Positions 18,830 through 63,163 are shown, counted from the stretch's first letter. The stretch is DNA of 64,000 bases from Acidobacteriota bacterium (GCA_022616615.1 JAKEER010000295.1:9768-73767), one strand, 5' to 3'. Notes: generated by a model from the sequence alone, not told the origin. Numbers and translations: made by a program.

Positions 18830-18912
18830 GAAGCACGAAGTGTGAAGCATGGTCTTGAAGTGGAAAATGAGTGTTTCGAGCCGCGTACTTGGAAGTTTGT
18901 ACTTCGTGCTTC
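18830..18912. repeat. Heptamer-word palindrome downstream of ffh
   Basis: The arms gaagcacgaagt (18830-18841) and acttcgtgcttc (18901-18912) are 12 bp and perfect. The left flank reads as 7-nt words tgaagcg|cgagttt|cgaagca|cgaagtg|tgaagca. Confidence 0.85.
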
Positions 18913-18915
18913 CAA

Positions 18916-19335
18916 GTGGAGTTCAGAGAATTGCCTTCCCAACCTAATCAATCCGAGGGTGATCCGGCATCGCCGGCCACGGTCCTGGTCGTTGATGACG
19001 AGCCTGCCATTCGGAGTTTGTTAACGCGGTTTCTCAGCAAATCCGGCTACACCGTCTTGGAGAGCGCAGATGGACGGGACGCTCTGGAGCAGCTGCGTCA
19101 GCGCAAAGTGGATCTTCTCATTTCGGATATCGTCATGCCGGAAAGGGATGGGTTGGAGGTCCTGCGATCTCTACGGAACGATTTTGCAGGATTGAAGGTC
19201 ATCGTTATGTCGGGTGCTTTTGATGGAAGGTTTCTCAGGACTGCCGAGATGCTGGGCGCTCACGCCACGCTGCAAAAACCGTTGCGCCTGGACGCTGTGT
19301 TTGAGACCGTACGCCAAGTGCTCGGAATGGATTGA
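18916..19335 (+). CDS. Single-domain response regulator (CheY-like receiver)
   Basis: VLVVDDEPAIRSLL...DLLISDIVMPERDGLEVL...KVIVMSG...LQKP. The start is uncertain: GTG 18871, GTG 18916 or TTG 18931. Confidence 0.8.
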   Translation: MEFRELPSQPNQSEGDPASPATVLVVDDEPAIRSLLTRFLSKSGYTVLESADGRDALEQLRQRKVDLLISDIVMPERDGLEVLRSLRNDFAGLKVIVMSGAFDGRFLRTAEMLGAHATLQKPLRLDAVFETVRQVLGMD

Positions 19336-19340
19336 GTCTT

Positions 19341-19381
19341 GAAGTGCGAAGTTCGAAGTGCAAAAGGAGTTCGCGCACTTC
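19341..19381. terminator. Hairpin between convergent genes (bidirectional terminator candidate), GAAGTGC word family
   Basis: gaagtgcg (19341-19348) pairs with cgcacttc (19374-19381). The words read gaagtgc|gaagttc|gaagtgc. It lies between the response regulator stop (19335) and the stop of the minus-strand gene (19383). Confidence 0.5.
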
Positions 19382-19382
19382 G

Positions 19383-20405
19383 CTAGCTTTTCTGCACGAG
19401 TTCTCTCAATCGGAGCAGGACTTCAGCAGAGATATCATTCGGCACTGAGCAGCCGGGCGACAGGATAAAGCGGCGTTTCTGCATGGCCAGGGTTGCGGCG
19501 TGAACGTCGTTAGCGAGTTCCTCTGGCATTTGGCTCGCGATCTTTCCTTCGTTCAAGCCACCCATCAAAGTTCCCGTAAATTTTCTTCGGATGTCAGACA
19601 GGCCGATGCCGGTTCCATGAGCTGAATAATTCATCACCTGGACCGGATAAGTGACCAGAGTGTCCCAGTGCGGCTTGTTGCCGTGAACGTGAAGCACATT
19701 GAGAATGCTTTTGTCTCTGACAGCCTCGAGGATGATGAGATCTGATTCGCGACCCATCTTGACGTAGTCTTGCGGGTCTGTCACAAAGTGATCGGCTGCT
19801 GACACCGCCAGAAAGATGCCCGCTGCCCCAGCATCCAGGGCCAGCCGTGCGTGGTTAACCTGGGACTCTGAGATCGCCCGGAGAACAGTCTTGAACAGCT
19901 TTGGGTCGTTTTCCTTCAGTTGCGCCAGATCCTTCTTTGACGAGAGCTTCTCAGCGACATTCCAGGATTGAAAAATCGTCTCAACGAACAGCGCCTGTCC
20001 TTTCAATTCCTTGTTGATCAGCCGCAGCGCCTTGATCTGTTCCGGAAAGGGGTTCTTGAGCGGCTCGAGTCTTTGCCAGTCTTCCGGCTCAGAGATTTTA
20101 TCCAGCCCCTCCGGCGGCGGGTAGGGGGAATCGCTCATGACTTTGAGCAAATCGACGTCAAACTTTCGGTAGAAATCGAGCGTTGCCTCTGCGTGTTTTT
20201 CACCAGGCAATTTCTCCAGTCCGAAATGATGCCAGCAGGTGAAGGGCACGCGGTCAACGCGCTCTCCCCGCAAGGCGGCTCTAACCCGTTCGACCTTGCC
20301 CATGTGAGATCTCCCACTGGCCAGTAGGGCTGGGCCGGCGGTGCTGGCAGAGGCGAGAACGCTGGCAAGCTTGAGAAAGTCCCGGCGCGAAAGTGCGCTT
20401 CCCAT
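19383..20405 (-). CDS. Uroporphyrinogen decarboxylase (URO-D) family protein with a twin-arginine signal
   Basis: The start was moved to ATG 20405: MGSALSRRDFLKLASVLASASTAGPALLA matches the Tat consensus SRRxFLK. The body has URO-D/MtaA-like motifs (RVPFTCWHHF, LHVHGN, ILSPGCSVP). Confidence 0.6.
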   Translation of the reverse strand: MGSALSRRDFLKLASVLASASTAGPALLASGRSHMGKVERVRAALRGERVDRVPFTCWHHFGLEKLPGEKHAEATLDFYRKFDVDLLKVMSDSPYPPPEGLDKISEPEDWQRLEPLKNPFPEQIKALRLINKELKGQALFVETIFQSWNVAEKLSSKKDLAQLKENDPKLFKTVLRAISESQVNHARLALDAGAAGIFLAVSAADHFVTDPQDYVKMGRESDLIILEAVRDKSILNVLHVHGNKPHWDTLVTYPVQVMNYSAHGTGIGLSDIRRKFTGTLMGGLNEGKIASQMPEELANDVHAATLAMQKRRFILSPGCSVPNDISAEVLLRLRELVQKS

Positions 20406-24815: not shown

Positions 24816-24853
24816 GGTCTATAGTTAGGGCGTGAATCACGCGCCCAGCAGGC

Positions 24854-24930
24854 GAAGATCTGAGATCGCAGATTTGAAATTTCAAATGGTTACTCAGCAC
24901 GCAAACCACAGATCGAAATCTCAAATCAAC
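24854..24930. repeat. Heptamer-word array with an internal palindrome at the junction of the two Gfo/Idh/MocA genes
   Basis: The words read gaagatc|tgagatc|gcagatt|tgaaatt|tcaaatg. The palindrome is atttgaaatttcaaat. A second cluster, cagatcgaaatctcaaatca, lies at 24908-24928. Confidence 0.8.
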
Positions 24931-25914
24931 CTGGCGATTCTGGGCGCTGGCAATATGGGACGGCGTCTGGCCAAGTCTTTTCAGGGCATTCCAGAGGTTT
25001 TAATCAAGTACGTTTACAGCCGCGCCCTGGCTCAGGCAGATAGTCTTGCCAGTCTGCACGGCGCGAGGGCCGTGAAGGAAACTGCCAGGATATTCGAAGA
25101 CACTGAAGTCGATGTTGTCGTCCTTTGCCTTCCGACCTTTACTCGACTCGAAACTCTGAAGCCGGCGCTGGAGTTTGGCAAACACGTCTTTTGCGAGAAG
25201 CCGCTGGCTCTCAATCAAGCGATGGCGGATGAAATGCGGGACTTGCTGGCGGGCTATCCACAGACGGTCATGGTGGGTCAGGTTCTTCGATTCTTCTGGG
25301 AATACGCACGACTTCGTGCGCGAGTGTTAGCGGGAGACGTCGGCCAAGTTGGAACGGTGCGCCTTTCGCGTTGCGTGGGATATCCGGGCGCCGAGTCGTG
25401 GTTTGCCGATCCCGACAAGAGTGGTGGCGTTATTCTCGATCTCTTGATCCATGATCTGGACTTTCTGCGCTGGACGTTCGGCGAGGTGAAACAAGTATTT
25501 GCAAAGGCATTGACACATAGCCAGCGTGGAAAACTTGATTACGCATTGTTGAACCTGCTACTCCAATCTGGCGCCTTGGCGCACATCGAGGGAAGCTGGG
25601 CTCACCCGGTCGGCAGCTTTCATCAAACTGTGGAGATCTGTGGCAGTCTTGGAATGCTGCACTACGACAATCTAACCTGCCAAAATCTGAAGGTGGTCTC
25701 GACTGCCGAGGCGGAAACGGGTCCCAGCTCGCGCATCTCGCTGCCGGAAGCGGATCCGAGCAACGATCCCTACGTTGCCGAGGCTCGTCACTTCATTGAC
25801 TGCATCCGCAATCAGCGCAAACCTGATGTGCCCGCCGAAGACTCTCTAAAGTCCTGCGAGCTGGCATTCCGCTGCATCGAATCGGCTCGGCAAGGCGTGC
25901 CTCTGCCAGTGTAG
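24886..25914 (+). CDS. Gfo/Idh/MocA family oxidoreductase
   Basis: INLAILGAGNMGRR (Rossmann) and FCEKPLA (EKP motif). The start ATG 24886 lies inside the word repeat, so the start is uncertain. Confidence 0.85.
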   Translation: MVTQHANHRSKSQINLAILGAGNMGRRLAKSFQGIPEVLIKYVYSRALAQADSLASLHGARAVKETARIFEDTEVDVVVLCLPTFTRLETLKPALEFGKHVFCEKPLALNQAMADEMRDLLAGYPQTVMVGQVLRFFWEYARLRARVLAGDVGQVGTVRLSRCVGYPGAESWFADPDKSGGVILDLLIHDLDFLRWTFGEVKQVFAKALTHSQRGKLDYALLNLLLQSGALAHIEGSWAHPVGSFHQTVEICGSLGMLHYDNLTCQNLKVVSTAEAETGPSSRISLPEADPSNDPYVAEARHFIDCIRNQRKPDVPAEDSLKSCELAFRCIESARQGVPLPV

Positions 25915-27462: not shown

Positions 27463-27463
27463 G

Positions 27464-27492
27464 GAAGTGCGAAGGACGAAGTGCGAAGGTCG
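27464..27492. repeat. Direct array of four 7-nt words, gaagtgc|gaaggac|gaagtgc|gaaggtc
   Basis: Read directly from the sequence. The word family is the same as at 19341-19360. No inverted partner was found nearby. Confidence 0.85.
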
Positions 27493-27702
27493 GTCGCGAA
27501 AAGCTTTGAGTTGTTGAAGCCCTGGCTGCGCAGTGTTCATATCAACGAGCTTTGGAAGAAAGAGTATCCTTGGCGCGAGCTGTTTGGCCTGCTGAGGAAG
27601 GCTGGATTCAACCGGTATAAGCTGGCAGAGATTGACGGGAATCCAGACTGTGTCCGCTTGATGCGTCATTACCGGGCGTTGTGGCTGGAACTTAATAGAT
27701 AA
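27481..27702 (+). pseudogene. 3' remnant (about 70 codons) of a sugar phosphate isomerase/epimerase (xylose isomerase-like TIM barrel) gene
   Basis: LLKPWLRSVHINELWKKEYPWRELFGLLRKAGFNRYKLAEIDGNPDCVRLMRHYRALWLEL resembles the C-terminal end of ~280-300-aa TIM-barrel proteins. The N-terminal ~75% is absent. Confidence 0.5.
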
Positions 27703-30246: not shown

Positions 30247-30972
30247 GTCTTTGAGCGGTCGCCTACACGGTTGTGGTTGCATTCCCATCCAGTACGGCAG
30301 CAGGAAGAAGGCGCCGTCGTCTTCGTGGTCCCATTGCTACCGCCATCCAATTGATAAGGACTCCCGTTCCATTTCATGATGACTCGTTCGCCCGGCGGAA
30401 GTGGCAGCACCGCCTGCGGTCTTTGAAACCGATCGCTGTCCTGGCGGGACTGAACATCCCATCGAAAGGAGCTGGGCGTGTTCCAGGAGACCAGGTTCAT
30501 GGGAATCCGCTGCAGTGTCCAGACGGAGTTCATCAAATCAAAGTCTGCCGAATCTGTTGCGGCCGCATAGATGAAGTTCCACCGCCTCAAGCTTTGCAAG
30601 TAAGTGGAGTGCAGCGCAGGCTGGGGAGAATGGCCAGTTCGTCGTCTGCTAGCCATCTTGAGGATACGGCTGTAGCTTGAAGGGCTGCTGGGATGCCATG
30701 GCGGGCAAGGGGGCGCGTGCCAGAGTCGAAAGAGCCAGAGCACCTAGACGAAAACTCAGGATCAAGCACTTGATGGGCATGATGGTTCCTGAAAGCCGCA
30801 TTCGATTTCAGCACGAAGAGTCTCATGCAAAGTTCCAAAGAGCCAAAGAAGCAGAGCATAGCGTGCGCTGCGTTTTCAAATGCAGCACTCACTCCTTTCG
30901 GGACTTCTGTCCTTGGACTCTCTGCGATTTTGCTTGAGACTCTTCGTGCTGGTCCAGAGGGAAGCATTCCTG

Positions 30973-43225: not shown

Positions 43226-43232
43226 GAAAAGC

Positions 43233-43383
43233 AAACCGCGGAGACGCAGAGGCGCGGAGAGCTAGGAACAAGCGTTGGATCGTTCTTTCCATTCCGAAAA
43301 TCGAAGATTGAGGATGGAGTATGGCCAGGCAATATTCTATCGAGGTGGCAGCGACCAAAGCTTTCTCTGCGTCTCCGCGGTTT
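43233..43383. repeat. 19-bp perfect inverted repeat flanking a 113-nt loop in the ilvC/cimA spacer
   Basis: The arms are aaaccgcggagacgcagag (43233-43251) and ctctgcgtctccgcggttt (43365-43383). The loop contains the 7-nt words aaaatcg|aagattg|aggatgg|agtatgg. Confidence 0.9.
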
Positions 43384-43403
43384 GTAGTTTCTTAGAGATT
43401 CGC

Positions 43404-45008
43404 ATGAAAAAAATTCAGATCTACGACACGACACTGCGCGACGGTTCCCAAGGCGAGGACATCTCGTTTTCCGTTGATGACAAGCTGCACATCGCCAGAA
43501 AGCTGGACGAACTGGGTATTGATTATATTGAAGGCGGCTGGCCCGGTTCGAACTTCAAAGACATGGCCTTCTTCAAGCGGGTCTCCGAGCTTGGGTTGAA
43601 GCACGCCCGAGTTGCAGCCTTCGGCAGCACCGCTCATCCCAAGAATAGTAAGGTCGAGGATGACAACAACATTCAGGCGCTGATCGAGTCGGGCACGCCG
43701 GTGGTCACCATCTTCGGCAAGAGCTGGGATCTGCATGTGAAGGTGGCACTGGGCATTTCGCTGGAGCGGAACCTCGAACTGATCGGCGATTCGGTGGCTT
43801 ATCTCAGGTCACTGGGCAAGGAAGTGATTTACGATGCCGAACACTTTTTCGACGGCCTTAAGGCGGATCGGGAATATGCCTTAGCAACGCTGAAAGCTGC
43901 CGAGCAGGCTGGCGCCGGCACGATTGTTCTGTGCGATACCAACGGCGGAACGCTCACCGAAGAGATTCGTGATTGCTTGCGGTCTGCCGTCGAGCGTCTG
44001 AAGACCCCCATCGGCATTCACACTCATAACGACTCGGACATGGCCGTGGCCAACTCGGTGATCGCCATTCGCCACGGAGCCGTGCACGTGCAAGGAACCT
44101 TCAACAGCTACGGTGAACGCTGCGGCAACGCCAACCTCTGTTCCATCATTCCCAACATCGAGTTGAAGCTGGGAATGCGCGCGATTGGTCAGGAGAAGCT
44201 GCGGAATCTGACCGAAGTCTCGCACTACGTCAGCGAAATTGCTAATATGCATCATCGGCAGGACTTTCCCTTTGTTGGCAAGAGCGCCTTTGCCCATAAA
44301 GGCGGCATTCATGTCAGTGCCGTTATGAAGGAACCCCTGGCGTACGAGCATATCCCACCGGAGACTGTCGGCAACGAGCGCCGAGTGCTGATTTCAGAGC
44401 TTTCGGGCAAGAGCAACGTGCTCTACAAGGCCGAGCGCATGGGCTTGCAACTCGATAAGGCGTCTCCCGGCGCCCAGGCCGTCGTCAACAAGTTGAAGGA
44501 GATGGAGCACTATGGCTATCAGTTTGAAGGCGCCGAGGCTTCCTTTGAGATTCTGTTCAACAAGCTAATGAACGAGCACAGTGAGTTTTTCGATCTCGAC
44601 GGGTTCCGTGTAATCACCGAGAGGAAGGGAAGCAACTCGTCCACGTCGGAGGCTGTCATCAAGCTGCGCGTGGATGGAACTGAAGAACACACGGCGGCAG
44701 AAGGGGTGGGGCCGGTCAGCGCCTTGGATCACGCTTTGCGCAAGTCGCTGACGACGTTTTTCCCGTGCATCAAGGATATTCGGCTGACTGACTACAAAGT
44801 CCGCGTTCTGAATGCCAAGGGAGCCACCGACGCCAAGGTACGCGTGCTAATCGAGACGAGCGACGGCCACGAATCCTGGGGCACCGTCGGCGTTTCTGAA
44901 AACCTAATTGAAGCCAGTTGGCTGGCGCTGGTCGACAGCATCACGTACAAGTTGAAGAAAGAGTACGGATTCAAGAACAAGGAGGCCCGGGAAAGGGTCA
45001 AGGGATAA
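43404..45008 (+). CDS. cimA: (R)-citramalate synthase (LeuA-like, CimA type)
   Basis: 534 aa from ATG 43404. [50 protein letters not shown] is CimA-type, and a C-terminal LeuA-dimer regulatory domain is present. Confidence 0.8.
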
Positions 45009-45017
45009 GTGGGTTAA

Positions 45018-45171
45018 GGGTCAAGGGTGAAGGCGAAAGGGTCAAGGCCGGAATGACGAATGACTAAGCTCGAATGACTAATGACGGATAACGGTCTGGC
45101 CATTCGTCATTCGAACTTCGACATTCGTCATTCTCCTCTTTTCTTGACCCTTTCGCCTTCACCCTTGACCC
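45018..45171. repeat. 154-bp near-perfect palindrome built from heptamer words (29-bp perfect outer arms)
   Basis: gggtcaagggtgaaggcgaaagggtcaag (45018-45046) is exactly complementary to cttgaccctttcgccttcacccttgaccc (45143-45171). The inner arms, gaatgac-type words (45051-45088) and cattcgtcattc-type words (45101-45133), are also largely complementary. Confidence 0.95.
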
Positions 45172-45198
45172 TTCAAAAGGCCTTGACACTTTGAGCCT

Positions 45199-46470
45199 AT
45201 GCCTATTTTCCAAGACCCCGTCGAAATAGAAGGTCATCTGATCGATTCAGGCATTCTCAAGTATGCCTTCGACAAAATTGTCGAGCACCAGGGTCAGTTT
45301 GAGGTGCTGGATTTTCGCATTGGGAGAAATAACCAGGAGACGTCCAAAGTTCGCCTGATGGTCCGGGCGGGGAGCCCGGAGCAGTTAGAGCGGATTCTGG
45401 CGGCGCTGGAAGACTTCGGCGCCGTGGTGGATTGGGACGACTGTCAGTTCCTTGCTGCGCAACAGGACAACATCCTGCCCGACGACTTCTACTCCACGAC
45501 GAATTTCGACACCTTCGTTAAGCTGAATGGCGAATGGTTTCCGGTGACGAACCAGAAAATGGACTCTGTGATCGTGTGGGAGGATGGCTGTGCCACGACC
45601 AAGAAGATCAGCGAAGTGAAAGCTGGCGATCAGGTCGCTGTGGGCCGGAAAGGCATCCGCGTCAAGCCTCAGGAGCGCAGCCGCGAATATTCGGTGTTTG
45701 ATTTCATGTCCAACGATCTGACGGCCGAGAACAACAAAAGTCTGCTCATTGCGGAGATCGCCAAGGCAATCGCCCAGGCAAAAGAAACGGGCGGGAAAGT
45801 TGCACTGGTGCCCGGGCCGGCCATCATTCATTCAGGCGCCGACCGGTACCTAAAAGAGATCCTTCAGATGGGTTTCATTGATGTCGTGCTTACCGGTAAT
45901 GCCTTTGCGGTTCACGACATCGAAAAGGCGATGCTCAATACGTCGCTGGGTGTCAATCAGAGCACTGGAAAGCCGGAAGAAGGCGGACACCGCAATCATC
46001 TTTGGGCGATCAATGAAATCAACAAAGCCGGCGGCATTCCGAAGGCCATCGAAGCCGGCGTCCTCAAATCGGGTCTGATGTACGAATGTGTCCGCCAGGG
46101 CGTTCGCTACGTGCTGGCGGGTTCGATTCGCGATGATGGTCCGTTGGTGGATGTGGTTACCGACTGCGTGCAGGCACAGAAGAAATACATTGCCGCACTG
46201 GAAGATGTGTCTGTGGTGTTGATGCTGGCTTCCACGCTTCACAGCATTGCGGTGGGTAATCTGCTGAGAGGCAGTGTGAAGACCGTTTGCGTGGACATCC
46301 ATGAGGCGACGCCCATGAAACTCAGCAATCGGGGCAGCAAGCAGGCCATTGGCCTGGTTACGGATGTTTCGTTCTTTTTGAGCATCCTGGCTGCGGAGCT
46401 CAGACGACACCAGCAGGAAACCGTGGGGCACATTTCACACCTCACGGATCACGCGTCACGTGATGCTTGA
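45199..46470 (+). CDS. TIGR00300 / LOR-SDH conserved-region family protein (ornithine cyclodeaminase-like, function uncertain here)
   Basis: 423 aa. MPIFQDPVEIEGHLIDSGIL...LDFRIGR..., then a Rossmann-like half (VALVPGPAIIHSG...VVLTGNAFAVHDIE...GHRNHL.AIN). Recognition is from memory of the family, not from a search. Confidence 0.55.
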   Translation: MPIFQDPVEIEGHLIDSGILKYAFDKIVEHQGQFEVLDFRIGRNNQETSKVRLMVRAGSPEQLERILAALEDFGAVVDWDDCQFLAAQQDNILPDDFYSTTNFDTFVKLNGEWFPVTNQKMDSVIVWEDGCATTKKISEVKAGDQVAVGRKGIRVKPQERSREYSVFDFMSNDLTAENNKSLLIAEIAKAIAQAKETGGKVALVPGPAIIHSGADRYLKEILQMGFIDVVLTGNAFAVHDIEKAMLNTSLGVNQSTGKPEEGGHRNHLWAINEINKAGGIPKAIEAGVLKSGLMYECVRQGVRYVLAGSIRDDGPLVDVVTDCVQAQKKYIAALEDVSVVLMLASTLHSIAVGNLLRGSVKTVCVDIHEATPMKLSNRGSKQAIGLVTDVSFFLSILAAELRRHQQETVGHISHLTDHASRDA

Positions 46471-46486
46471 AACGTGATCCGTGAGG
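46440..46486. repeat. 14-bp perfect inverted repeat overlapping the 3' end of the TIGR00300-like gene
   Basis: cctcacggatcacg (46440-46453) pairs with cgtgatccgtgagg (46473-46486). The words read cacggat|cacgcgt|cacgtga, and the CACGGAT word also builds the BREX-island repeats. Confidence 0.9.
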
Positions 46487-46525
46487 CGCAAGATGGAGAG
46501 TGGCATCAACTAAGGAGGAGAAACC

Positions 46526-50823: not shown

Positions 50824-50974
50824 AATTGTCGATTGCTGATTTTCGATTGTCGATTACGGGAGCCAGTTCTTATAAGGTGAGCTCGAAAGACAAAACCAGT
50901 TCATGTTGCGCTGATCGTTTGTCGCTGACTTGATCAATTGTCAATCGGCAATCTGCAATCGACCATCGGCAATT
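50824..50974. repeat. Heptamer-word inverted repeat between ychF and the ZIP transporter gene
   Basis: The left arm reads aattgtc|gattgct|gattttc|gattgtc|gatt (50824-50855). The right arm reads caattgt|caatcgg|caatctg|caatcga|ccatcgg|caatt (50935-50974). The arms are complementary at about 19 of 22 positions over the core. Confidence 0.85.
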
Positions 50975-53997: not shown

Positions 53998-54441
53998 ATG
54001 CTCAGAGGTAGCTACGCAGCCAAGGTGGACGAGAAGGGCCGACTGAAGCTTCCTTCGGATTTTCGCTCCAAAATCGAGGAAGAATACGGATCTAAGTTCT
54101 ACATTACAGCCAGTTTAGAGATCGACTCGGTTCATCTCTACCCTTTGCCGGTTTGGGAAGAGATTGAGCGCAAGCTGGCCGGCCAGCCTATGACTAATGC
54201 TTCAGTGGACAAGTTTATGGACATAACTGGCTACTATGGCGCTGAGGTAACTATGGACAGTCAGGGCAGGATACTGATTCCACAGCGCCTACGCGAGGCC
54301 GTCCAGATTCGAGATGAAGTGAATGTCATGGGTAAGATGCGTTTTCTTTCCATTTGGAATGACGAGAATTACAAGACCAAGCGTCTGAATCAGCCCTTTG
54401 GAAAAGATGATGCGCATGAGCTTTCCCAGCGGGGAATCTGA
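53998..54441 (+). CDS. mraZ: Transcriptional regulator MraZ
   Basis: MLRGSYAAKVDEKGRLKLPSDFR... plus a second SpoVT-AbrB repeat (MDSQGRILIPQRLR). The start is taken at ATG 53998. Confidence 0.9.
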   Translation: MLRGSYAAKVDEKGRLKLPSDFRSKIEEEYGSKFYITASLEIDSVHLYPLPVWEEIERKLAGQPMTNASVDKFMDITGYYGAEVTMDSQGRILIPQRLREAVQIRDEVNVMGKMRFLSIWNDENYKTKRLNQPFGKDDAHELSQRGI

Positions 54442-54518
54442 TCGAGAACACCATGCGAATTGCAGCAGTTGCACAGTCCCACTTTTTCCCACTGCCGGTC
54501 CGACCTTGGAGCGGGGAC

Positions 54519-55454: not shown

Positions 55455-55775
55455 CTATGGTCTCTCGCAAATGGCTTTACAGCTATCGGATACTCACTGC
55501 CAGGCTGCGCGAGGGGGCAGATGCGCCGTCGCCTCTTGCAAACAGCTTAACCGCGTCTTCTCACCAGCATCCCCTCTCCCTAAACGCCGAGCTGAGTGAG
55601 AACGACCCCAAGAAAACGGCTTCCTTGCTGACTGCCGGGGCAGAGAGGTGAACGTTGAAAGCCCTTCTCACATGGTTGCGGAGGCTGAGTGAGAGGTGTT
55701 TGCTGCCAGGACAAGCGGCATTGAACTTTGTTTGTCACATTTGGATTAGGTTGTTTTAGTAGTCAGACCAATAGT

Positions 55776-55825
55776 GAGCGGACACAACTTGTGTATGTCC
55801 GCTCCCCTCGCCCCGTTTGGGGAGA
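55776..55825. repeat. REP-like element copy B plus an adjacent 9-bp hairpin, in the rsmH/ftsL spacer
   Basis: gagcggaca...tgtccgctc forms the hairpin. gtccgctcccctcgccccgtttggggag (55798-55825) matches the reverse complement of 48127-48157. Confidence 0.85.
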
Positions 55826-55956
55826 GGCGTCGGGGATTGAGGGTTGGATTGAGGGGCGCTTATTCTGCCCTCGCAGTGTCCCCTACTTCTGTACTCATCA
55901 ATAAGAGCTCTTGACCAGCGCGCTGCGAGCAAGTCTTGGTCGAATGAGGAGGCACC

Positions 55957-56382
55957 ATGACGGAGATCTACATTGTTAGGCAGATTGACAATACCCGGCT
56001 GACCAAGGAAGTCGACTACCGGCGGACGAAGGAGTGCCTGTGGCTGATGTCCCTGGGCTTTTTCTGCCTCCTCATTTTTTTGTTTCTGGCGTGGCAGCAG
56101 TTCGAAGTCATTCGGGACGGGTACGAGGGCGAGGTGCTAAAGAAGGAAGCCACTCAACTGTCTGAAGAAAATCACCAACTGATATTGGAGCGCGCCTCGC
56201 TGCGCAGCCCCCAGCGAATTGACTTGATTGCCAAAAAGAAACTCGGACTCATTGCGCCGGCGCATGACCAGATTGTTGTTCTCTCAACGCCATTTCCCAC
56301 CGAGCCACCGGCGACTCTGGTGGCCAGGTCGGACAAGACAACCAGCGAGCCAGGCTTGGCCAAGCTGGCTGTCGTCCGGTAA
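55957..56382 (+). CDS. ftsL: Cell division protein FtsL
   Basis: 141 aa with a single TM helix (LWLMSLGFFCLLIFLFLAW) followed by a coiled coil. It lies between rsmH and ftsI. Confidence 0.75.
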   Translation: MTEIYIVRQIDNTRLTKEVDYRRTKECLWLMSLGFFCLLIFLFLAWQQFEVIRDGYEGEVLKKEATQLSEENHQLILERASLRSPQRIDLIAKKKLGLIAPAHDQIVVLSTPFPTEPPATLVARSDKTTSEPGLAKLAVVR

Positions 56383-56451
56383 TGCCGCGCTCTGTCTTCT
56401 CTGGGCACAGTTTACAAGCATCCGGCCGTTCCCTCCAATGGGTGTGCACCC

Positions 56452-58515
56452 ATGTCTGCCAAACCCAAGGATTCCTTCCCAGCGAGAATCTTCGTTCTCA
56501 GCAGCCTTTTTTTGATCTGGTCCTTCCTGCTGGTTTTCAGGCTCGTTCATTTGCAAATCTTCCAGTATGCAGAGCTGAGCGCGAAGGCCCGGCGCCAGCA
56601 GAGCCGCTCCTTCGAGATTAGCCCTCAGCGAGGCACGATTTACGACCGTCACGGGCGGGAACTCGCCGTCAGTGTCAGCGTCGATTCTGTCTATGCGATC
56701 TCATCTGAGATCTCCGACAAGAAGCAGGCGGCGGATCAGCTTGCCCGCGTCCTTACCCTGAAGCGGCAGGATGTTCTCGCCAAACTGAAAGCTACCCGCG
56801 GCTTCATCTGGCTCAAGCGCAAAGTCGACTATTCCGAAGTAGCCAAGGTCAAGGCCTTGGAGATACGTGGCGTTTACTTCGAAAAGGAAAGCAAGCGGTT
56901 CTATCCGAACCGCGAGCTGGCGGCTCATGTCCTGGGCTACGTAGGCATGGATAATGAAGGGCTCAGCGGGCTCGAGTTTGCGTATCAGAAGCAGATCGGT
57001 GGTTCGCCCGGCCGGGTTTTGCTGCTCTCGGATGCGCGGCAGCGTTCTTTTAGCAGTGTCGAAAAGGCGCCGGACCCAGGTGAAGATCTGGTGCTCACAA
57101 TCGATCAAACACTGCAGTATCTCGCAGAGCAGGAACTGGCAGCGCAGGTGCGGAAATCCAATGCGCTGGGAGGCACGGTGATTGTGATGGAGCCGAACTC
57201 CGGCGACGTCCTGGCCATGGCGAGCTACCCGGCGTTCAATCCGAACCATTATGCTAAGTATTCTCCCGAGCACTGGAAGAATCGTGCCATTCTCTCGATC
57301 TATGAGCCGGGTTCGACGTTCAAGATCTTCACTGCCGCCACTGCGCTCGAAGAGCGCCTCGCCAAGCCGGACGAGCCTATTGACTGCCTGAACGGGGCGA
57401 TTGTCGTGGGGAAGCATCGAATTCGGGATCACAAGCCCTATGGTGTTCTTCCCGTGCGCGAAGTGGTGGCCTACTCCAGCAACGTGGGCGCGGTGCAACT
57501 GGGTTTTCGCATCGGCAAAGAACGCTTCGAGAAATACATCCGCTCCTTCGGCTTCGGCGCACCCACGGCTGTGGATTTGCCAGGCGAGGCCAAGGGCTTG
57601 TTGCGCCCATCTTCCCAGTGGCCCACTGTGACGCTGGCCAACATCGCTATGGGGCAGGGCATTGGCGTGACACCGATGCAGTTGGTCACGGCCGTCAGTT
57701 CTATTGCCAATGGGGGCTATCGCGTCAGGCCTCGGATTGTGCGGCGCACGCGGTCGGGTGCGGTGGAAAAGGTGAGTTTTAAACCCGAGAGTGGGCGCAG
57801 CCGCATCCTCAGCAGTCGAACAGCATCGGAACTCACCGAAATGCTCACCGGCGTCGTGAAGCGCGGAACCGCCAAAAGCTCGCAACTGGAAGGCTTCAGT
57901 GCCGCCGGAAAAACGGGCACGGCCCAGAAGATTGATCCGAATGGGCGGTATTCCCATTCGCGCTTTATCGCCTCCTTTGTGGGGTTTGCGCCTGCCGAGC
58001 GCCCCGCGCTGGCAATGGTCGTGACCATTGACGAGCCGCGCGGTCGCTACTATGGTGGAGAAGTGGCGGCGCCCGTTTTCAGGAATATCGCGGAGCAGGC
58101 GTTGCGCTACCTAGCCGTCTCTCCAGACCAGGAACTGACCCCGGTTCAGTTGGCCAGAAGACGCCAATTGCAAGCTTCCATTCCAGACCTGGCGCACGAC
58201 CAGTTTGAACCCATGAACGCCAATTGGGAAGGCGAAGCGGACGAAACACCGGCGGCGCAACAAGAGGGCGTGCCGCTTTCTCCCGCCCCGCCTGCGGCTG
58301 AGCCGGACGCGGCGGTCAGCCTCAGCGAAGCGGCGACGATCGAAGTGCCCGATCTTCGGGGAAGGTCTCTGCGAACGGCAATCACGGAGGTCTCCAAGCT
58401 GGGCTTGCAGTTGGGCGCCTTTGGTTCTGGCCTCGTTGTTGAACAGTCGCCAGAGCCCGCTTCGAAAGTGGAGCCGGGATCGAAAGTAATGATCAAGCTG
58501 AGCCGGCGGTTGTAG
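56452..58515 (+). CDS. ftsI: Peptidoglycan D,D-transpeptidase FtsI (class B PBP) with a C-terminal PASTA domain
   Basis: 687 aa with a TM anchor, a PBP dimerisation domain, the SxxK motif (STFK), SSN and KTGT motifs, and a C-terminal PASTA-like VPDLRGRSLRTAITEV... Confidence 0.9.
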   Translation: MSAKPKDSFPARIFVLSSLFLIWSFLLVFRLVHLQIFQYAELSAKARRQQSRSFEISPQRGTIYDRHGRELAVSVSVDSVYAISSEISDKKQAADQLARVLTLKRQDVLAKLKATRGFIWLKRKVDYSEVAKVKALEIRGVYFEKESKRFYPNRELAAHVLGYVGMDNEGLSGLEFAYQKQIGGSPGRVLLLSDARQRSFSSVEKAPDPGEDLVLTIDQTLQYLAEQELAAQVRKSNALGGTVIVMEPNSGDVLAMASYPAFNPNHYAKYSPEHWKNRAILSIYEPGSTFKIFTAATALEERLAKPDEPIDCLNGAIVVGKHRIRDHKPYGVLPVREVVAYSSNVGAVQLGFRIGKERFEKYIRSFGFGAPTAVDLPGEAKGLLRPSSQWPTVTLANIAMGQGIGVTPMQLVTAVSSIANGGYRVRPRIVRRTRSGAVEKVSFKPESGRSRILSSRTASELTEMLTGVVKRGTAKSSQLEGFSAAGKTGTAQKIDPNGRYSHSRFIASFVGFAPAERPALAMVVTIDEPRGRYYGGEVAAPVFRNIAEQALRYLAVSPDQELTPVQLARRRQLQASIPDLAHDQFEPMNANWEGEADETPAAQQEGVPLSPAPPAAEPDAAVSLSEAATIEVPDLRGRSLRTAITEVSKLGLQLGAFGSGLVVEQSPEPASKVEPGSKVMIKLSRRL

Positions 58516-58568
58516 GATCTGAAGTGAGGCCAGAGATTTGTCCCCCTGGAGCTGTGAAAAAATTCAGT

Positions 58569-58770
58569 GGTAGGGACGCGCTGCTCCGCGTCCCTACCGG
58601 ATCACGTTTATGCGTCCAATCGAATTTTTTCCCACCTCCCCTTGGCAAGGTGGACTACAGGGGGTGTGCTACGAACTAATGAAGACTCCCTGCCGCAAAA
58701 AAAGCGGCGTCCCCCTTGGAAAAGGGGGACAAATGTAAAACTCCCAATCCCCTCCTCATCTGAGGAGGGG
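58569..58770. repeat. Cluster of four unrelated perfect hairpins in the ftsI/murE spacer
   Basis: ggtagggacgcg-ctgctc-cgcgtccctacc (58569-58598, 12 bp), gccgc-aaaaaaa-gcggc (58692-58708), gtccccctt-ggaa-aagggggac (58709-58730, 9 bp) and cccctcctca-tc-tgaggagggg (58749-58770, 10 bp). Confidence 0.9.
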
Positions 58771-58784
58771 CATAGTAGCCTTCC

Positions 58785-60257
58785 ATGCAGCTTTCACAGT
58801 TACTTCAAGATGTTGCACCCATTTCCGATGCGAGTTTTCGAAATGTTGAAATCCACGGCCTCGCCTATGATTCCAGGAAGGTGGGATCAGGTTATCTTTT
58901 CGTGGCAATCAAAGGAGAAAAGACGGACGGCAATTTTTTTACCGCTCAGGCCATGGAACGAGGCGCCGCGGCGATCCTTTCGGAAAACAGCGCCCCTGCG
59001 GGGTTCAGCGGTTGCTGGATTCAGGTGGGCAACGCCCGTCAGGCACTGGCCAAGGCCGCTGCCAGCTTTTACCAGAATCCCACCAGGGCGTTTGAACTGA
59101 TTGGAATCACCGGCACCAACGGGAAAACTTCAACCGCCTATCTCATCGAGTCGATCCTGCGGGCAGCGGGCGCGCGGGTGGGTGTGATTAGCACCATTGA
59201 GTATCGCGGGCCGGAAGGCAAGAGGGCTGCCGAGCGGACGACTCCAGAAAGTCTGGATCTGCAAGCGCTGTTCGCAAAATTTGTTGAGCAGCGCTGCCGC
59301 TTTATCGTCATGGAGGTGTCGTCGCACGCGCTCGACATGGAGCGTGCGCACTTCTGCCAGTTCCGGACCGCCGTTTTCACGAACCTGACGCAAGATCACC
59401 TGGACTATCATCACACGCTGGAGAATTATTTTCTTGCCAAGCAGCGGCTCTTTCTGGGAACCGGCTTGAAGCCTCCGGCCCAGTCAGTGATCAACCGCGA
59501 TGACCCGTACGGAGCCAGTCTCGAGCTGATCTGCGCGGGTCGCTGCCTTACCTATTCCACGGCGATGAGCGCTGATTTTCAGATTCTGGATTCGCGGCTG
59601 GAGAAGGCTGGCCTGTGGGTTCGGCTCAGAACTCCGGAGGCTATCCTGGAGATACAGACACGGTTGATGGGCAGACCTAACCTGTCGAATACCCTGGCAG
59701 CGGTGGCGGTGGCCTGGGACCTGGGCATTGAACCTGCTGCGATCCAGCGGGGCATTGAAAGCTGTGCGCCCATCCCGGGGCGGTTCGAGTGGATTGACTG
59801 CGGGCAGCCGTTCCACGTGTTTGTCGATTACGCACACACGCCCGATGCGCTGGAGAAGCTGTTGCTAACGACGCGCGAACTCAGGCCGAAACGCCTGCTG
59901 GTCTTATTCGGCTGTGGCGGGGAACGCGACCGCGCCAAGCGCCCCGCCATGGCCCGGATCGCCGAATCGCTGGCCGATTTTTGCTGGATCACCTCCGACA
60001 ATCCGCGCAATGAAGATCCGATGCAAATCCTTGCCGAGATCGAAAGTGGTTTCCAAGCTCGCCCAGTGCGCTACCAGCTGGAGCCCGATCGCCGAACGGC
60101 GATTCGAGAAGCTCTTCGCCAGGCGCAGCCGGGCGACGCGGTCGTCATCGCTGGCAAGGGTCACGAGACCTATCAGGTACGGGCCGATCGCACCGTTCAC
60201 TTTGACGATCGGGAGGAGGTCCGGCAGGCCCTCGGCGAGCTGGGGTTTTCGTCATGA
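58785..60257 (+). CDS. murE: UDP-N-acetylmuramoyl-L-alanyl-D-glutamate--2,6-diaminopimelate ligase
   Basis: 490 aa with GITGTNGKTST and the DNPR motif (ITSDNPRNEDP), which indicates meso-DAP specificity. Confidence 0.95.
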   Translation: MQLSQLLQDVAPISDASFRNVEIHGLAYDSRKVGSGYLFVAIKGEKTDGNFFTAQAMERGAAAILSENSAPAGFSGCWIQVGNARQALAKAAASFYQNPTRAFELIGITGTNGKTSTAYLIESILRAAGARVGVISTIEYRGPEGKRAAERTTPESLDLQALFAKFVEQRCRFIVMEVSSHALDMERAHFCQFRTAVFTNLTQDHLDYHHTLENYFLAKQRLFLGTGLKPPAQSVINRDDPYGASLELICAGRCLTYSTAMSADFQILDSRLEKAGLWVRLRTPEAILEIQTRLMGRPNLSNTLAAVAVAWDLGIEPAAIQRGIESCAPIPGRFEWIDCGQPFHVFVDYAHTPDALEKLLLTTRELRPKRLLVLFGCGGERDRAKRPAMARIAESLADFCWITSDNPRNEDPMQILAEIESGFQARPVRYQLEPDRRTAIREALRQAQPGDAVVIAGKGHETYQVRADRTVHFDDREEVRQALGELGFSS

Positions 60258-61654
60258 AGCTCAATGCCAAGGAGATCGCCAGTGCCGTGCAGGCGCAGCG
60301 TCTCAATGCTAGCGGCGCCATCATACCGGCGGGCTACTCGATCGATTCCCGAACGCTTGGCACTGGGGAGTGCTTCATTGCCATCCACGGGCCCAACTTC
60401 GATGGGCACGAATTCATTGCCGCAGCCTTGAAGCAGGGCGCCGCCCTCGTCATCGCTAGTTCGGAAACCAAGGTCCCGACAGAGGTCGACTGGCCGGTGA
60501 TTTTTGTCGACGACACGCTGGCTGCTCTGCAACGTCTTGGTAGATACGCGCGCCGCAAGTGGGGCAAAACAGTGATTGGCATCACCGGCAGCACCGGCAA
60601 AACAACCACGAAGGAGATTGCGAGTCTCCTGCTGCAGGCGCACTTCCGGGTCTTCAAGTCGGCTGGCAATTTCAATAACGACTTTGGGCTGCCACTTTCC
60701 ATTTTGAAGCTAGCCGAGGAACACGAGATCGCGGTGCTCGAGCTGGGCATGTCCCGCGCGGGTGAAATTGAGCGGCTGAGCGGGATCGCTAAACCCAACA
60801 TCGGTGTCGTCACCAACGTCCTCCCGGTGCACCTTGAGAATTTCCGTTCGATGCAAGGCGTCGCTCTGGCCAAGCGCGAGCTGATCGAGAGCCTGCCTGC
60901 AGGCGGAGTGGCCGTTCTAAACAATGACGACAGGCGGGTGCGCAAGTTTGGACGGGTGTTCCCAGGCAAAGTGCTAACCTTTGGCGTCGAAGCGGCTGCG
61001 GCCTACCGTGCCAGTGAGATTCGTTCTCTCGGTCTGGAGGGCCAGGAGTTCCGGCTGGACTACAAGGCGCAAGGGCACCGGCTACAGTTGCCGCTGATCG
61101 GCGAGCACAACGTCCACAATGCGCTTCCGGCGATCGCCGTGGCGCATCACTTGGGCGTCGGTTTTGAAACCATCCGCCAGAGCCTGCGCGCCCTCAGGCC
61201 GGCGCCCGGCCGCGGCGAGCTGCTGCGGTTTTGCGATGGTTTTGCCGTTTTGAACGACAGCTACAATTCGAACCCTGCAGCCCTGGAGGCAGTGATTGGA
61301 TTCTTGAAGGCGCTCGCCGGATTCAAGCGAAAGATCCTGGTTGCCGGGGAGATGCTGGAGCTTGGGCCTAAGGCCGAGCAGTTCCATCGGGATTGCGGCA
61401 GGCTGGCAGCTTCAGCCAGAGTTGACCGGATCGTTGGCGTGCGCGGGCTGGCCGAGTTCATCACGCGGGCCGCCCAGGAAGAAGGCCGCTCGGCTACCGA
61501 GACACCGTTCTTCGCAGATGCTGCCGCAGCGGGTGAGTGGCTCACGCGTGAAGTCATGGCTGGCGACTTTGTGGTGGTGAAGGGATCGCGAGGGGTCAGA
61601 ACCGAGAAGGTCATCGAGATTCTGAGGCGAGATCACGCTTTGGCGGGGAATTGA
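60254..61654 (+). CDS. murF: UDP-N-acetylmuramoyl-tripeptide--D-alanyl-D-alanine ligase
   Basis: 466 aa. GITGSTGKTTTKE, ELGMSRAGEI and DSYNSNP are present. A 4-bp overlap with murE. Confidence 0.95.
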   Translation: MKLNAKEIASAVQAQRLNASGAIIPAGYSIDSRTLGTGECFIAIHGPNFDGHEFIAAALKQGAALVIASSETKVPTEVDWPVIFVDDTLAALQRLGRYARRKWGKTVIGITGSTGKTTTKEIASLLLQAHFRVFKSAGNFNNDFGLPLSILKLAEEHEIAVLELGMSRAGEIERLSGIAKPNIGVVTNVLPVHLENFRSMQGVALAKRELIESLPAGGVAVLNNDDRRVRKFGRVFPGKVLTFGVEAAAAYRASEIRSLGLEGQEFRLDYKAQGHRLQLPLIGEHNVHNALPAIAVAHHLGVGFETIRQSLRALRPAPGRGELLRFCDGFAVLNDSYNSNPAALEAVIGFLKALAGFKRKILVAGEMLELGPKAEQFHRDCGRLAASARVDRIVGVRGLAEFITRAAQEEGRSATETPFFADAAAAGEWLTREVMAGDFVVVKGSRGVRTEKVIEILRRDHALAGN

Positions 61655-61687
61655 GAAACAACCTCGGCCAGGAGCCAGAAGCGATTC

Positions 61688-61810
61688 GTCATTGGTCATC
61701 TGACATTTTTCATCGCGCTCGGTCTGTACTGGACTGGCCACAGAAGCTCTGCTGGTTGCTGCGCCTTGCGATGACCAATGACACATGACCAATGACCAAT
61801 GAGAAATGAC
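61688..61810. repeat. Heptamer-word inverted repeat in the murF/mraY spacer (TGACCAA words)
   Basis: The left arm is gtcattggtcatctgacatttttcatcgc (61688-61716). The right arm reads gcgatga|ccaatga|cacatga|ccaatga|ccaatga|gaaatga|c (61768-61810). gtcattggtcat/atgaccaatgac are 12 bp and perfect. Confidence 0.9.
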
Positions 61811-61875
61811 TTTTGAGTTTGGATCGCAGGCTCCACGGCGCACCTCTGATAGGGTGCTGCACAGAACGAGGCGGA

Positions 61876-63018
61876 ATGCTCTACCACTTGCTGTATGAAT
61901 GGCTGTATCGGACCAATCCGAGCTACTCGGTGCTGAATGTTTTTCAATACGTCACGTTTCGCACAGCCTATGCAAGTTTGACGGCGCTGGCACTCGGCTT
62001 GATCATGGGGCCATGGCTCATCCACCGGCTGCAGCTCTTCCAAATCGGGCAGCAGATTCGCGAGGAAGGTCCGTCGCACCATCAGGTGAAGGCCGGGACG
62101 CCGACGATGGGCGGCATTTTGATCGTGGTCAGCACCGTGCTACCTACATTCCTGTGGGCCGATCTCACCAACTCTTTCACTTGGGTCGTGCTGGTTTCCA
62201 TCGTCGGATTTGGCGCCATTGGTTTTGCGGACGACTACATCAAAATCGTTAAGAGAAGAAGTCTCGGGCTCACGGGAAGGACGAAACTTGTGCTGCAGTT
62301 CAGTTTGAGCTTTGCTATCGGTTTGGCGCTCGTGTGGATGAGCGCAGCCAGGCTGTATAAGACGAACCTCATCGTTCCGTTCTTCAAACAGTTCACTCCC
62401 AGCTTGATTCTGGAAGGCTTCCTGAGTTCGCCTTACTTGTATTTGGTAGCGTTTCTGCCGTTCCTGATTTTCATTTCCATTGTGATTGTGGGATCGTCGA
62501 ACACCGTGAACCTCACCGATGGGCTGGACGGACTGGCCATTGGATGCGTCATCATTGCCAGTTCCGCGCTCACTGTCCTCACGTACGTCACGGGCCACGC
62601 CCGGTTTGCGAGCTATCTGGATATTCAGCATTTGCCGCAAGTTTCCGAGGTAACGATTTTCTGCGGCGCGCTGGTTGGGGCCTCGCTGGGGTTTCTCTGG
62701 TACAACTGTCACCCTGCCGAGGTCTTTATGGGAGATGTGGGGTCGCTGGCGCTCGGTGGCGCCATCGGAACCATTGCCGTACTCATCAAGCAGGAGATTT
62801 TGCTGGTCGCCATCGGCGGCGTTTTCGTGGCCGAGGGTTTGTCAGTAATGATTCAGGTGGCTTCATTCAAGCTGCGAGGTAAGCGGGTCTTCAAGATGGC
62901 GCCATTACACCATCACTTTGAGCTGCTGGGTTGGAAGGAAACCAAGGTGGTGGTTCGCTTTTGGATTGGGGCCCTCATCTTTGCGCTGTTCAGCTTGACG
63001 ACGCTGAAGCTGAGGTAG
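61876..63018 (+). CDS. mraY: Phospho-N-acetylmuramoyl-pentapeptide transferase
   Basis: 380 aa from ATG 61876. [30 protein letters not shown] and APLHHHFE are present. Confidence 0.95.
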
Positions 63019-63021
63019 AAA

Positions 63022-63163
63022 ACGAGGATAGAAGATTGAAGATAGAGGATAGAAGATAGAGATAGAGATAGAGGATTGAGGATTGAGGATTGAGGATTGA
63101 CGCGATGACACGCCTCCCTTAACCCTCAATTCTCGATCTTCAATCCTCCATCCTCCATCTTCA
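63022..63163. repeat. Heptamer-word inverted repeat in the mraY/murD spacer, including 4 perfect tandem GAGGATT units
   Basis: The left arm reads ...tagaaga|ttgaaga|tagagga|tagaaga|tagagat|agagata|gaggatt x4 (63071-63098). The right arm reads cctcaat|tctcgat|cttcaat|cctccat|cctccat|cttcagt (63123-63163), complementary words. Confidence 0.9.

Follow-up and report, generated by a model that had tools for sequence, protein, structure and literature searches.

Palindromes with heptamer-array arms in intergenic spacers of an Acidobacteriota genome

Gene content of the window and sequences compared

The window analysed here is a stretch of 64,000 nucleotides (nt) from an Acidobacteriota bacterium (GCA_022616615.1, JAKEER010000295.1:9768-73767), and the features under study are palindromes in its intergenic spacers, the arms of which are themselves tandem arrays of imperfect 7-nt words. 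The host is a soil member of the Acidobacteriota, and exact look-up matches the window to contig CCZLGV010000168.1 of the metagenome-assembled genome GCA_973798195.1. The MraY protein of the window has a best identity of 66% to species representatives, with all matches in the Acidobacteriota, and its relatives are all Acidobacteriota or Terriglobia. The window has a GC content of ~55% and carries a decayed BREX (bacteriophage exclusion) locus, ffh (SRP54), an ilvC/leuA-type cluster, ychF, and the dcw cluster from mraZ to mraY. A first-pass annotation, made from the sequence alone, had listed ten loci of this kind between positions 18,830 and 63,163, and every word that it reported is present where it was placed.

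Contig L081 covers the window from 51876 onward and a further 9 kb beyond it, and the dcw spacers past the window end were read there; whole-contig counts cover 73 kb of the source contig. The close relatives used for the comparison of dcw spacers are contigs with MraY 93, 90, 89, and 79% identical (L085-L088). A wider dcw set, 1.39 Mb in total, comprises 81 loci from other Acidobacteriota together with a few from Nitrospinota. The metagenome set (716 kb) consists, among the matches listed, of contigs matching the arm pattern GTCATTGNTCATNNGNCATTTTTCAT (26 nt, taken from the element at 61684).

Heptamer periodicity, dyad symmetry, and folding

The window contains 11 period-7 arrays as called by Tandem Repeats Finder, against 1.2 per window in 50 dinucleotide shuffles; the excess over shuffled controls expected by the first-pass annotation is thus present in a scan of the window. 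Stringent autocorrelation over periods 2-15 gives hits at period 7 and its multiple 14 alone. In an ungapped search within 400 nt, a reverse-complement partner is found for 9 of the 11 period-7 arrays (scores 15-31) and for all six arrays of a family with a 9-nt period (CACGGATNN, 3748-6119). Reverse-only and complement-only controls never score above 9.5, and no partner is found within 400 nt for any of 16 arrays with periods of 10-24 or a coding-type period of 9. A separate inverted-repeat search of the window recovers the same arms. Among the 15 strongest inverted repeats in the 73 kb of contig, four have period-7 arms, three period-9, and one period-8 arms, and seven are aperiodic; about 20 elements are present in these 73 kb, every one of them in a spacer. 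Together with the fold z-scores (computed against dinucleotide shuffles), the excess of arrays and the partner search with its controls show that the heptamer palindromes are real and lie far from chance.

On the fold z-scores, six or seven of the ten loci are full heptamer palindromes. The clear ones are at 43232, 45016 (two nested layers), 46435, 50825, 61684, and 63024. At 18830, 19341, and 24854 an array is present with a short or weak partner, and at 27464 the array is solo, with no inverted partner in the 400-nt search, so that the claim of pairing at all ten loci holds for the clear group, in weakened form for three loci, and fails for one.

Individual elements

Coordinates refer to the plus strand unless otherwise stated. 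The strongest fold (z -12.6 for 45010-45178) belongs to the element at 44993..45175, a two-layer palindrome in which outer arms of AAGGGTC words (45016-45046 and 45143-45173; 31 nt, 100% complementary) enclose inner arms of GAATGAC words (45051-45083 and 45101-45133; 88% complementary). Its array opens within the last five codons of the upstream cimA-like gene (44993-45008; stop at 45008), the last codons and stop of which come from the heptamer array (protein end ...GKGQGI*).

The mraY-murD element (63024..63166; z -7.8 for 63019-63175) has about 11 GAGGATA/GAAGATT units facing CCTCAAT/CTTCAAT units, and extends from 6 nt past the mraY stop to ~17 nt before the murD start. Its words resemble the last 13 nt of mraY (GAAGCTGAGGTAG versus GAAGATAGAGGATAG), and the resemblance already exists in the relative with the empty site. 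Logan contigs L083 and L084, from two independent public assemblies of short reads, both end inside its GAGGATT array, at 63099/63100, and hence such heptamer repeats break short-read assemblies. The murF-mraY element (61684..61815; z -3.7 for 61676-61822) belongs to the GTCATT/AATGAC (STRR2-type) family and has a left arm ATTCGTC ATTGGTC ATCTGAC ATTTTTC, a 51-nt loop, and a right arm GATGACC AATGACA CATGACC AATGACC AATGAGA AATGAC.

At 43232..43384 (z -6.2 for 43228-43388), perfect 20-nt arms (CAAACCGCGGAGACGCAGAG and its complement) of two to three units only are separated by a 113-nt loop, which itself contains a GAAGATT/GAGGATG run; the element lies between ilvC and a citramalate/isopropylmalate synthase-like gene, the likely start of which is the ATG at 43405. 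The element at 46435..46487 (z -5.3 for 46428-46498), between a LOR/SDH-like gene and leuA, consists of CACGGAT/CACGCGT/CACGTGA words and forms a hairpin of ~20 bp. On the minus strand, ATTGTCG and CAATCGG arrays form the inverted arms of the element at 50825..50973 (z -3.0 for 50820-50979), which has an 80-nt loop and fills the spacer from the ychF stop (50980) to the start of a ZIP transporter gene (50819), both genes being on the minus strand.

The remaining loci fold weakly. Between the stop of ffh (SRP54) at 18817 and a response-regulator gene, the element at 18806..18915 (z -2.5) has a GAAGCRC/GAAGTGY array at ~18810-18870 and a short, weak inverted partner at 18893-18912 (score 9.5). 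The element at 19336..19385 (z -1.8), in a 47-nt spacer with convergent genes on either side, shows three GAAGTGC units followed by GCGCACTTCGC and forms a short hairpin. The response-regulator gene (~18931-19335) has GAAGTGC arrays on both sides (18810-19381), in direct and not inverted orientation, and GTCTTGAAGTG is common to the two. The AGATYTG/AAATYTC runs at 24850..24932 (z -1.6) have a weak dyad and fold better on the minus strand (sense -16.1 versus antisense -26.3 kcal/mol). The solo GAAGTGC/GAAGGWC array at 27464..27492 (z +0.8 for 27455-27500) lies right after a stop codon, and its best partner scores 6.

Position relative to genes

The elements of the window mostly open a few nt past a stop codon and extend to the ribosome-binding site of the next gene, and their location just past stop codons or between codirectional genes had been described correctly. 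Of 48 paired loci, taken from the window and from the other dcw sequences fetched for comparison, ~34 begin between -18 and +30 nt from the end of the upstream open reading frame (ORF; ORFs were called crudely).

Stop triplets are frequent in the words. In the window and contigs L001-L088, 19 of the 32 paired heptamer words contain TCA/TGA, where shuffling the letters of the words predicts 7.7, and a stop triplet is found in one or other arm in 24 of 32 (18.2 expected, likewise letter-shuffled). As the unit length is not divisible by 3, an array of words with such a triplet puts stops into every one of the three reading frames. From a reading of the words, not a formal tally, the left arm contains stop triplets in ~12 cases, and the right arm alone in ~7. 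Since they show no clear arm orientation, simple seeding from stop codons was rejected as a general origin.

The dcw spacers of this genome, read in L081, are unusually long (166-636 nt between mraY, murD, ftsW, murG, murC, ftsQ, and ftsA), whereas most matching spacers in relatives with MraY 79-93% identical measure 10-100 nt; palindromic repeats of several kinds account for the extra length. A second repeat family, rich in GC, TCGGCTCCCCTCGCCCC..GGGAGAGGGG..GGGGTGAGGGG, sits in the rsmH-ftsL, murD-ftsW, and murC-ftsQ spacers (window 55798-55843; L081 12836-12881 and 17532-17577). It carries a GGGGWSAS motif, as do the inverted repeats that flank RAYT-like TIRYT genes (PMC3733652).

Families and the cross-phylum arm

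Each locus had been described as having words of its own. Many words do occur, but the GTCATT/AATGAC family has copies at 45051, at 61684, and in at least three further dcw spacers just past the window, and GAAGTGC arrays occur three times in the window. Aligned in register, the left arms from the murF-mraY, murD-ftsW, and ftsW-murG spacers show 63-83% identity, which extends to the non-periodic lead AAsCGATT and to an odd ATTTTTC unit; the right arms resemble one another as well. The inner hairpin at 45051 and the ftsQ-ftsA element belong to the same family in the opposite orientation. In contig L070, the murF-mraY and murD-ftsW copies match through the loop too. The CACGGAT palindromes share arms of ~30 nt and have unrelated loops; their arms recur beside mraY in L011 and L014 and at other places in L012 and L025. 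An integron attC identity was rejected for the CACGGAT repeats that bracket genes, as their ends, judged by eye, misfit the RYYYAAC/GTTRRRY core, and such elements are found in housekeeping operons as well. No integrase domain was found among the ORFs of the BREX locus that were scanned.

Short tandemly repeated repetitive (STRR) heptanucleotides are a feature of heterocystous cyanobacteria, with the units CCCCAGT, TTGGTCA, and CAACAGT; they have been known since 1990, reportedly from the description by Mazel et al., and have been used for strain typing. We know of no agreed origin or function for them. The word TTGGTCA of the GTCATT/AATGAC family is presumably the STRR2 unit. The arm pattern GTCATTGNTCATNNGNCATTTTTCAT matches at least 120 metagenome contigs. 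Among the matches listed, it occurs in 105 distinct contexts, on contigs with a GC fraction of 0.39-0.69; the arm consensus atcATTTGTCATTGGTCATTTGaCATTTTTCATTTGTCATTT in these contexts is ~41 nt long and is made up of six units, beyond which conservation drops to background on either side, and an inverted partner lies within 400 nt in 50 of the 105, with a median loop of ~48 nt. The loops of the metagenome copies are unrelated and often hold further arrays of other words, giving concentric layers like those at 44993..45175; a metagenome scan with the conserved loop of the murF-mraY element gave no match. Exact protein look-up identified the host of L141 as Nostoc, of L110 as an Oscillatoriaceae cyanobacterium, of L142 as Pyrinomonadaceae, and of L207 as another acidobacterial lineage. 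With this arm pattern in Nostoc, and with TTGGTCA taken as the STRR2 unit, the link to STRRs is a real sequence relationship and goes further than the analogy first drawn. The GAGGATT, AAGGGTC, and GAAGTGC words appear to be lineage-specific, and cross-lineage matches of GAAGTGC were rejected as coincidences in coding sequences.

Turnover between relatives

Elements are gained and lost between relatives with MraY 89-93% identical, so that turnover is fast. In the window the mraY-murD spacer, with its element, measures 166 nt, against 10 nt in L085, whose MraY is 93% identical; the insert of 156 nt lies exactly between the TAG stop and GGGCT, and no target duplication is seen at this one filled/empty site. 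The murF-mraY element has a homologue in L085 (83% identity) and is absent from L086 and L087. Its arms differ between the window and L085 by several non-compensated substitutions, and the L085 left arm has one extra ATTGGTC unit: elements differ by complete 7-nt units. The murD-ftsW spacer holds a GTCATT-type hairpin in the window and, in L085, a CAGGGAA/CAGGTGA hairpin that overwrote the C-terminus of MurD. Heptamer-array sequence at L085 5654-5696 provides the gene's final codons and stop, and the protein now ends in ...LQGTGDREQVTGNR*, 8 residues longer than its orthologues. In a strain 99.76% identical, both compared elements are unchanged, and hypervariable repeats of the contingency type were rejected on this ground.

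The same class in other lineages

In the 81 dcw loci, 42 of 140 period-7 arrays are paired, compared with 13 of 71 for period 8, 8 of 249 for period 9, 3 of 103 for period 12, and 0 of 74 for period 6. Clear heptamer or octamer palindromes with words of their own are present in L007, L012, L014, L040, L070, L075, and L080 and in the Nitrospinota contigs L067 and L069, often immediately before or after mraY. Analogous hairpins, made of other words, stand in the same dcw spacers of distant relatives. The distribution is patchy, as most of the 81 loci carry no such palindrome. Among the matches listed, the metagenome contigs contain 426 period-7 arrays, 223 of them paired, as well as 83 period-6, 69 period-8, and 97 period-9 arrays.

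In a high-GC acidobacterial lineage (L207 1-1300; also L177 and L198), lexA lies between inverted arms of at least 200 nt, formed by a fixed series of CGTAATCG-type, TCATT-type, and ATTGGTT-type arrays, followed, on the side of L207 that extends far enough, by CTGGGAC- and CCGATGT-type arrays. Together the arms make a giant layered palindrome around a whole gene.

DNA-level or RNA-level feature

The arm pairs comprise, on the sense strand, 785 Watson-Crick pairs, 36 G:U, 25 A:C, and 68 other mismatches. The difference between G:U and A:C is not significant, and transversions are the commonest class of mismatch. Sense and antisense folding energies are similar, with no trend. Selection on a sense-strand RNA was set aside as unlikely, there being neither a wobble bias nor an energy trend. 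The two arms of one element share variants in 151 of 196 cases, against 123 of 196 expected from population frequencies, which fits either a hairpin inherited as a unit or copying from arm to arm.

A terminator scan of 44001-64000 called no element. The loops in the window measure 17-113 nt, and no T-run follows the elements, except for a weak one (TTTTGAGTTT) past 61815. Intrinsic (Rho-independent) terminators were rejected on these grounds: no call in the scan, loops too unlike the usual 3-8 nt, and no U-tract. Rfam at the gathering threshold matches nothing at the elements, and in E-value mode gives merely chance matches to miRNA hairpins at 63026-63173 and 46439-46487. A selected RNA role for the elements is possible but improbable, and no test in this analysis supports it.

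Other repeats and RNA genes of the window

Four palindromes of the 9-nt CACGGATNN family, outside the range covered by the first-pass annotation and unlisted there, lie within 3748..6119, with arm pairs at 3748-3774/3862-3888, 4277-4310/4465-4498, 5205-5233/5262-5290, and 5963-5984/6093-6119. Their arms are conserved, their loops are unrelated, and they bracket each gene of the decayed BREX locus. This locus, of type 1, occupies 147-9672 and comprises BrxC (147-3740), a remnant of PglX of which N- and C-terminal fragments survive (4447-5186), PglZ, which seems to be divided between two frames (6134-6949 and 6864-8777), and the N-terminal part only of BrxL (8749-9672), with a GxxExxY/PDDEXK_3 gene (3892-4278) and a VapBC pair (~5337-5952) inserted. 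A 24-nt tandem repeat (CAGCGGCATCCTGCCGCTGCCGGC, 9578-9654, 2.3-2.9 copies), itself also a near-perfect palindrome, lies where the truncated BrxL ORF ends, just upstream of the gene for signal recognition particle (SRP) RNA.

A long hairpin at 30809..30951 (strand not assigned), likewise unlisted in the first-pass annotation, has 40-nt arms with 83% complementarity, a 63-nt loop, and a z-score of -7.4; its inner part consists of ~8-nt words (CAAAGTTC, CAAAGAGC, and CAAAGAAG). The sole above-threshold Rfam matches in the window are 6S RNA (13368-13546, 78 bits) and the small SRP RNA (9825-9923, 70 bits).

Interpretation

The reading to which we give a probability of about 0.5 is that the elements are STRR-type DNA palindromes, similar to repetitive extragenic palindromic (REP) sequences and MITEs (miniature inverted-repeat transposable elements), non-autonomous, propagated by copying, and remodelled in place by slippage. 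An element is built of arms of 25-45 nt with 3-11 imperfect 7-nt words each (8-9 nt in some families), usually paired in inverted orientation with a variable loop (10-150 nt) between them, and occupies the spacer from one stop codon to the next ribosome-binding site. Elements would spread as families, within genomes and among soil bacteria, by a copying process for which no enzyme was identified. They would then be remodelled in three ways: by gain or loss of whole 7-nt units through replication slippage, the presumed source of the units, by copying or co-inheritance between the two arms, and by the nesting of one element in the loop of another. A transcribed element would fold into a stem of 20-40 bp between cistrons, which would probably act as a barrier or processing point for mRNA decay and not as a terminator. 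The analysis demonstrates the periodicity, the pairing, the families, one arm common to two phyla, gain and loss among relatives, an indel of one unit, the lack of target duplication at a single site, and the lack of strand bias, and from these the copying mechanism, slippage as the origin of units, and any effect on RNA are inferred.

The first-pass annotation had considered the pattern hard to explain by simple transposition of one element. The main family speaks otherwise: it is dispersed, with a defined ~41-nt arm, sharp edges, and paralogous copies. The alternative named there, that the elements are just copies of a few REP/MITE families, is therefore half borne out.

Several observations weigh against copy-propagated palindromes. 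In the metagenome set, the words GAGGATT, AAGGGTC, GATTGTC, GCGGAGA, and GAAGTGC do not exceed a random word in frequency, and a local origin of the elements built from them is therefore possible. No element has a transposase or other mobilising gene beside it, and a transposase between distant arms was looked for and rejected, since the genes enclosed by arm pairs 1-1.3 kb apart are ordinary ones (malate dehydrogenase, lexA, and one for a secreted nuclease-like protein). Copies have unrelated loops, in contrast to classical MITEs, and the single arm is not self-complementary, in contrast to REPs. The likeness of the mraY-murD words to the mraY terminus hints at seeding in place, and the analogous hairpins in the same dcw spacers of distant lineages could mean selection for the hairpin. 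The G:U test, with 61 informative mismatches, is low in power. Among the called genes of L081 and L085-L088 there is no member of the Y1_Tnp family; the rest of the genome was not searched. The lack of a target duplication, which rests on a single site, is compatible with the TIRYT-type enzyme class.

An explanation of the elements as selected RNA hairpins (intercistronic or 3'-end mRNA stabilisers, RNase III or RNase E sites, or structures for stop-start translational coupling) is doubtful. Under it the words would differ between loci and lineages because the sequence is free to drift, and it would suit the very stable folds, the many paired loci that begin at an ORF end (~34 of 48) and often end beside the next gene, the hairpins with other words in the same dcw spacers of L007, L014, L069, L070, and L080, and the inverted arms that bracket genes in the manner of rRNA or intervening-sequence processing stems (GxxExxY and VapBC, 3862-5990; lexA in L207). 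However, presence varies in an essential operon among relatives with MraY 89-93% identical, one family is inserted in both orientations, the substitutions that separate the window from L085 are non-compensatory, folding is equally stable on the two strands, and, with transversion mismatches commonest, G:U shows no excess over A:C on the sense strand; U-tract and short loop are both lacking. A purely local, immobile origin is equally improbable for the elements as a whole. Here slippage of heptanucleotides, which form loops too large for mismatch repair, would seed an array near a stop codon, and intrastrand template switching (quasi-palindrome correction) would mirror the second arm. It accords with the 7-nt unit indel between orthologues, with arrays that run into gene 3' ends (the cimA-like gene at 44993-45008 and the LQGTGDREQVTGNR tail of MurD in L085), with the many words specific to a locus or lineage, with an arm-to-arm match (81-100%) that exceeds the match of neighbouring units (65-88%), and with the heptanucleotide excess and slippage explanation for bacterial simple repeats, as cited in PMC4692102 and PMC4679880. 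It leaves unexplained the fixed six-unit order and sharp edges of the TCATT arm in the 105 contexts listed, spanning two phyla, as well as the in-register paralogous copies and the copies that share loops; moreover, the arrays are the same in strains 99.76% identical, and 156 nt with both arms appear at once at one site. For the lineage-specific words alone, a local origin is plausible, because the mraY-murD units resemble the mraY end and arrays repeatedly overlap stop codons.

It is very unlikely that the words are repeated binding sites with the 7-nt spacing as the footprint of a nucleoid or regulatory protein, an RNA binder like cold-shock proteins (CSP) or CsrA, or a transposase with subterminal repeats. 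Strict conservation across phyla is seen for one word family, TCA/TGA is over-represented in the paired words (19 of 32 versus 7.7), and cold-shock proteins bind heptamers (PMC4679880); yet many unrelated words occur in one genome, no candidate protein was identified, and the sites would be base-paired in the hairpin. CsrA-type GGA sites were set aside, as GGA occurs in only 3 of 9 words and would be paired there. More tentatively still than copy-propagated palindromes, and on balance improbably, STRRs may be one part of a pan-bacterial modular hairpin DNA, in which heptamer arms would be copied between loci and phyla without a dedicated transposase, perhaps by template switching at stalled forks with the words as microhomology, would stack concentrically at gene boundaries and around genes (lexA in L207), and would be joined by new words born beside stop codons.

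For the heptanucleotide excess in bacterial genomes, as for STRRs, no agreed explanation is known. The arm shared by Nostoc and Acidobacteriota, the nested palindromes at stop codons, and the turnover at 90% MraY identity offer material to separate mutational origin, mobility, and function. In practical terms, the elements break short-read assemblies and distort gene calls at 3' ends and start codons.

Comparison with known systems

The elements resemble STRRs in being tandem 7-nt words, intergenic, and, to judge from the ~20 in 73 kb of contig, probably present in many copies; the GTCATT/AATGAC family presumably corresponds to the TTGGTCA word, and its arm pattern is paired into hairpins in the Nostoc and Oscillatoriaceae contigs too. 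They differ in the host, an acidobacterium and not a heterocystous cyanobacterium, in being mostly inverted pairs with concentric layers of different words at stop codons, and in words (GAGGATT, AAGGGTC, GAAGTGC, GATTGTC, and GCGGAGA) that are not classical units. According to Rehm et al., Nostoc has only a few inverted pairs, of one word (PMC4692102).

The first-pass annotation knew of no equivalent description for this kind of genome, and none was found for Acidobacteria in the literature searched; convergent inverted pairs of heptamer arrays have, however, been described for Xanthomonas (PMC4692102). There, GGGAATC repeats form 70-75 convergent inverted pairs per genome, capable of forming stem-loops (Rehm et al. 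2015, PMC4692102), and their length and sequence vary between close species while the single or paired type is kept (PMC4692102). Common to both systems are convergent heptamer arrays, close together and intergenic. In Xanthomonas one G-rich, quadruplex-forming word is used genome-wide, whereas here that word is absent and many words occur, mostly A/T-richer than the genome, in nested layers. In Geobacter metallireducens, four or five heptanucleotides in tandem (GGGACCG, MTYCTGA) make up multicopy elements, some of them depicted as strand-switching palindromes (PMC2700814), but these are few fixed words, read as regulator sites and in part located within genes.

Like REPs and REPINs (PMC3733652, PMC3116915), the elements are short, abundant, extragenic, and palindromic, lie downstream of genes, often as inverted pairs, and are patchy among species; the lack of a target duplication is shared with elements of the IS200/IS605 type. 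Di Nocera et al. 2013 (PMC3733652) reported RAYT-like (REP-associated tyrosine transposase) 'TIRYT' transposases, together with dispersed inverted-repeat families, from Koribacter, Terriglobus, Acidobacterium, and Granulicella. Unlike in REPs, as defined in PMC3733652, a single unit forms no stem-loop of its own: the arm consensus ATCATTTGTCATTGGTCATTTGACATTTTTCATTTGTCATTT lacks both self-complementarity and the conserved GTAG/CGTC tag. The arms are also internally periodic, and no RAYT/TIRYT gene adjoins an element. Differences from MITEs are the missing target-site duplication at the one clean filled/empty pair (window versus L085, mraY-murD), the unrelated loops among copies, and distant arm pairs that bracket housekeeping genes and not transposases.

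An excess of heptanucleotides among long prokaryotic simple-sequence repeats, with slippage as the proposed cause, was reported by Mrazek et al. 2007, as cited in PMC4692102 and PMC4679880. As there, period 7 is favoured here for non-coding tandem repeats; in the account of the citing papers, that work concerns arrays as such, and palindrome pairing, families, and placement at stop codons are not part of it. The heptanucleotide excess, the slippage explanation, convergent heptamer pairs, and tandem-heptanucleotide elements were thus already known, while the use of many words in one genome, the concentric layering, the placement at stop codons, and an STRR2-type arm common to Cyanobacteria and Acidobacteriota appear to be new.

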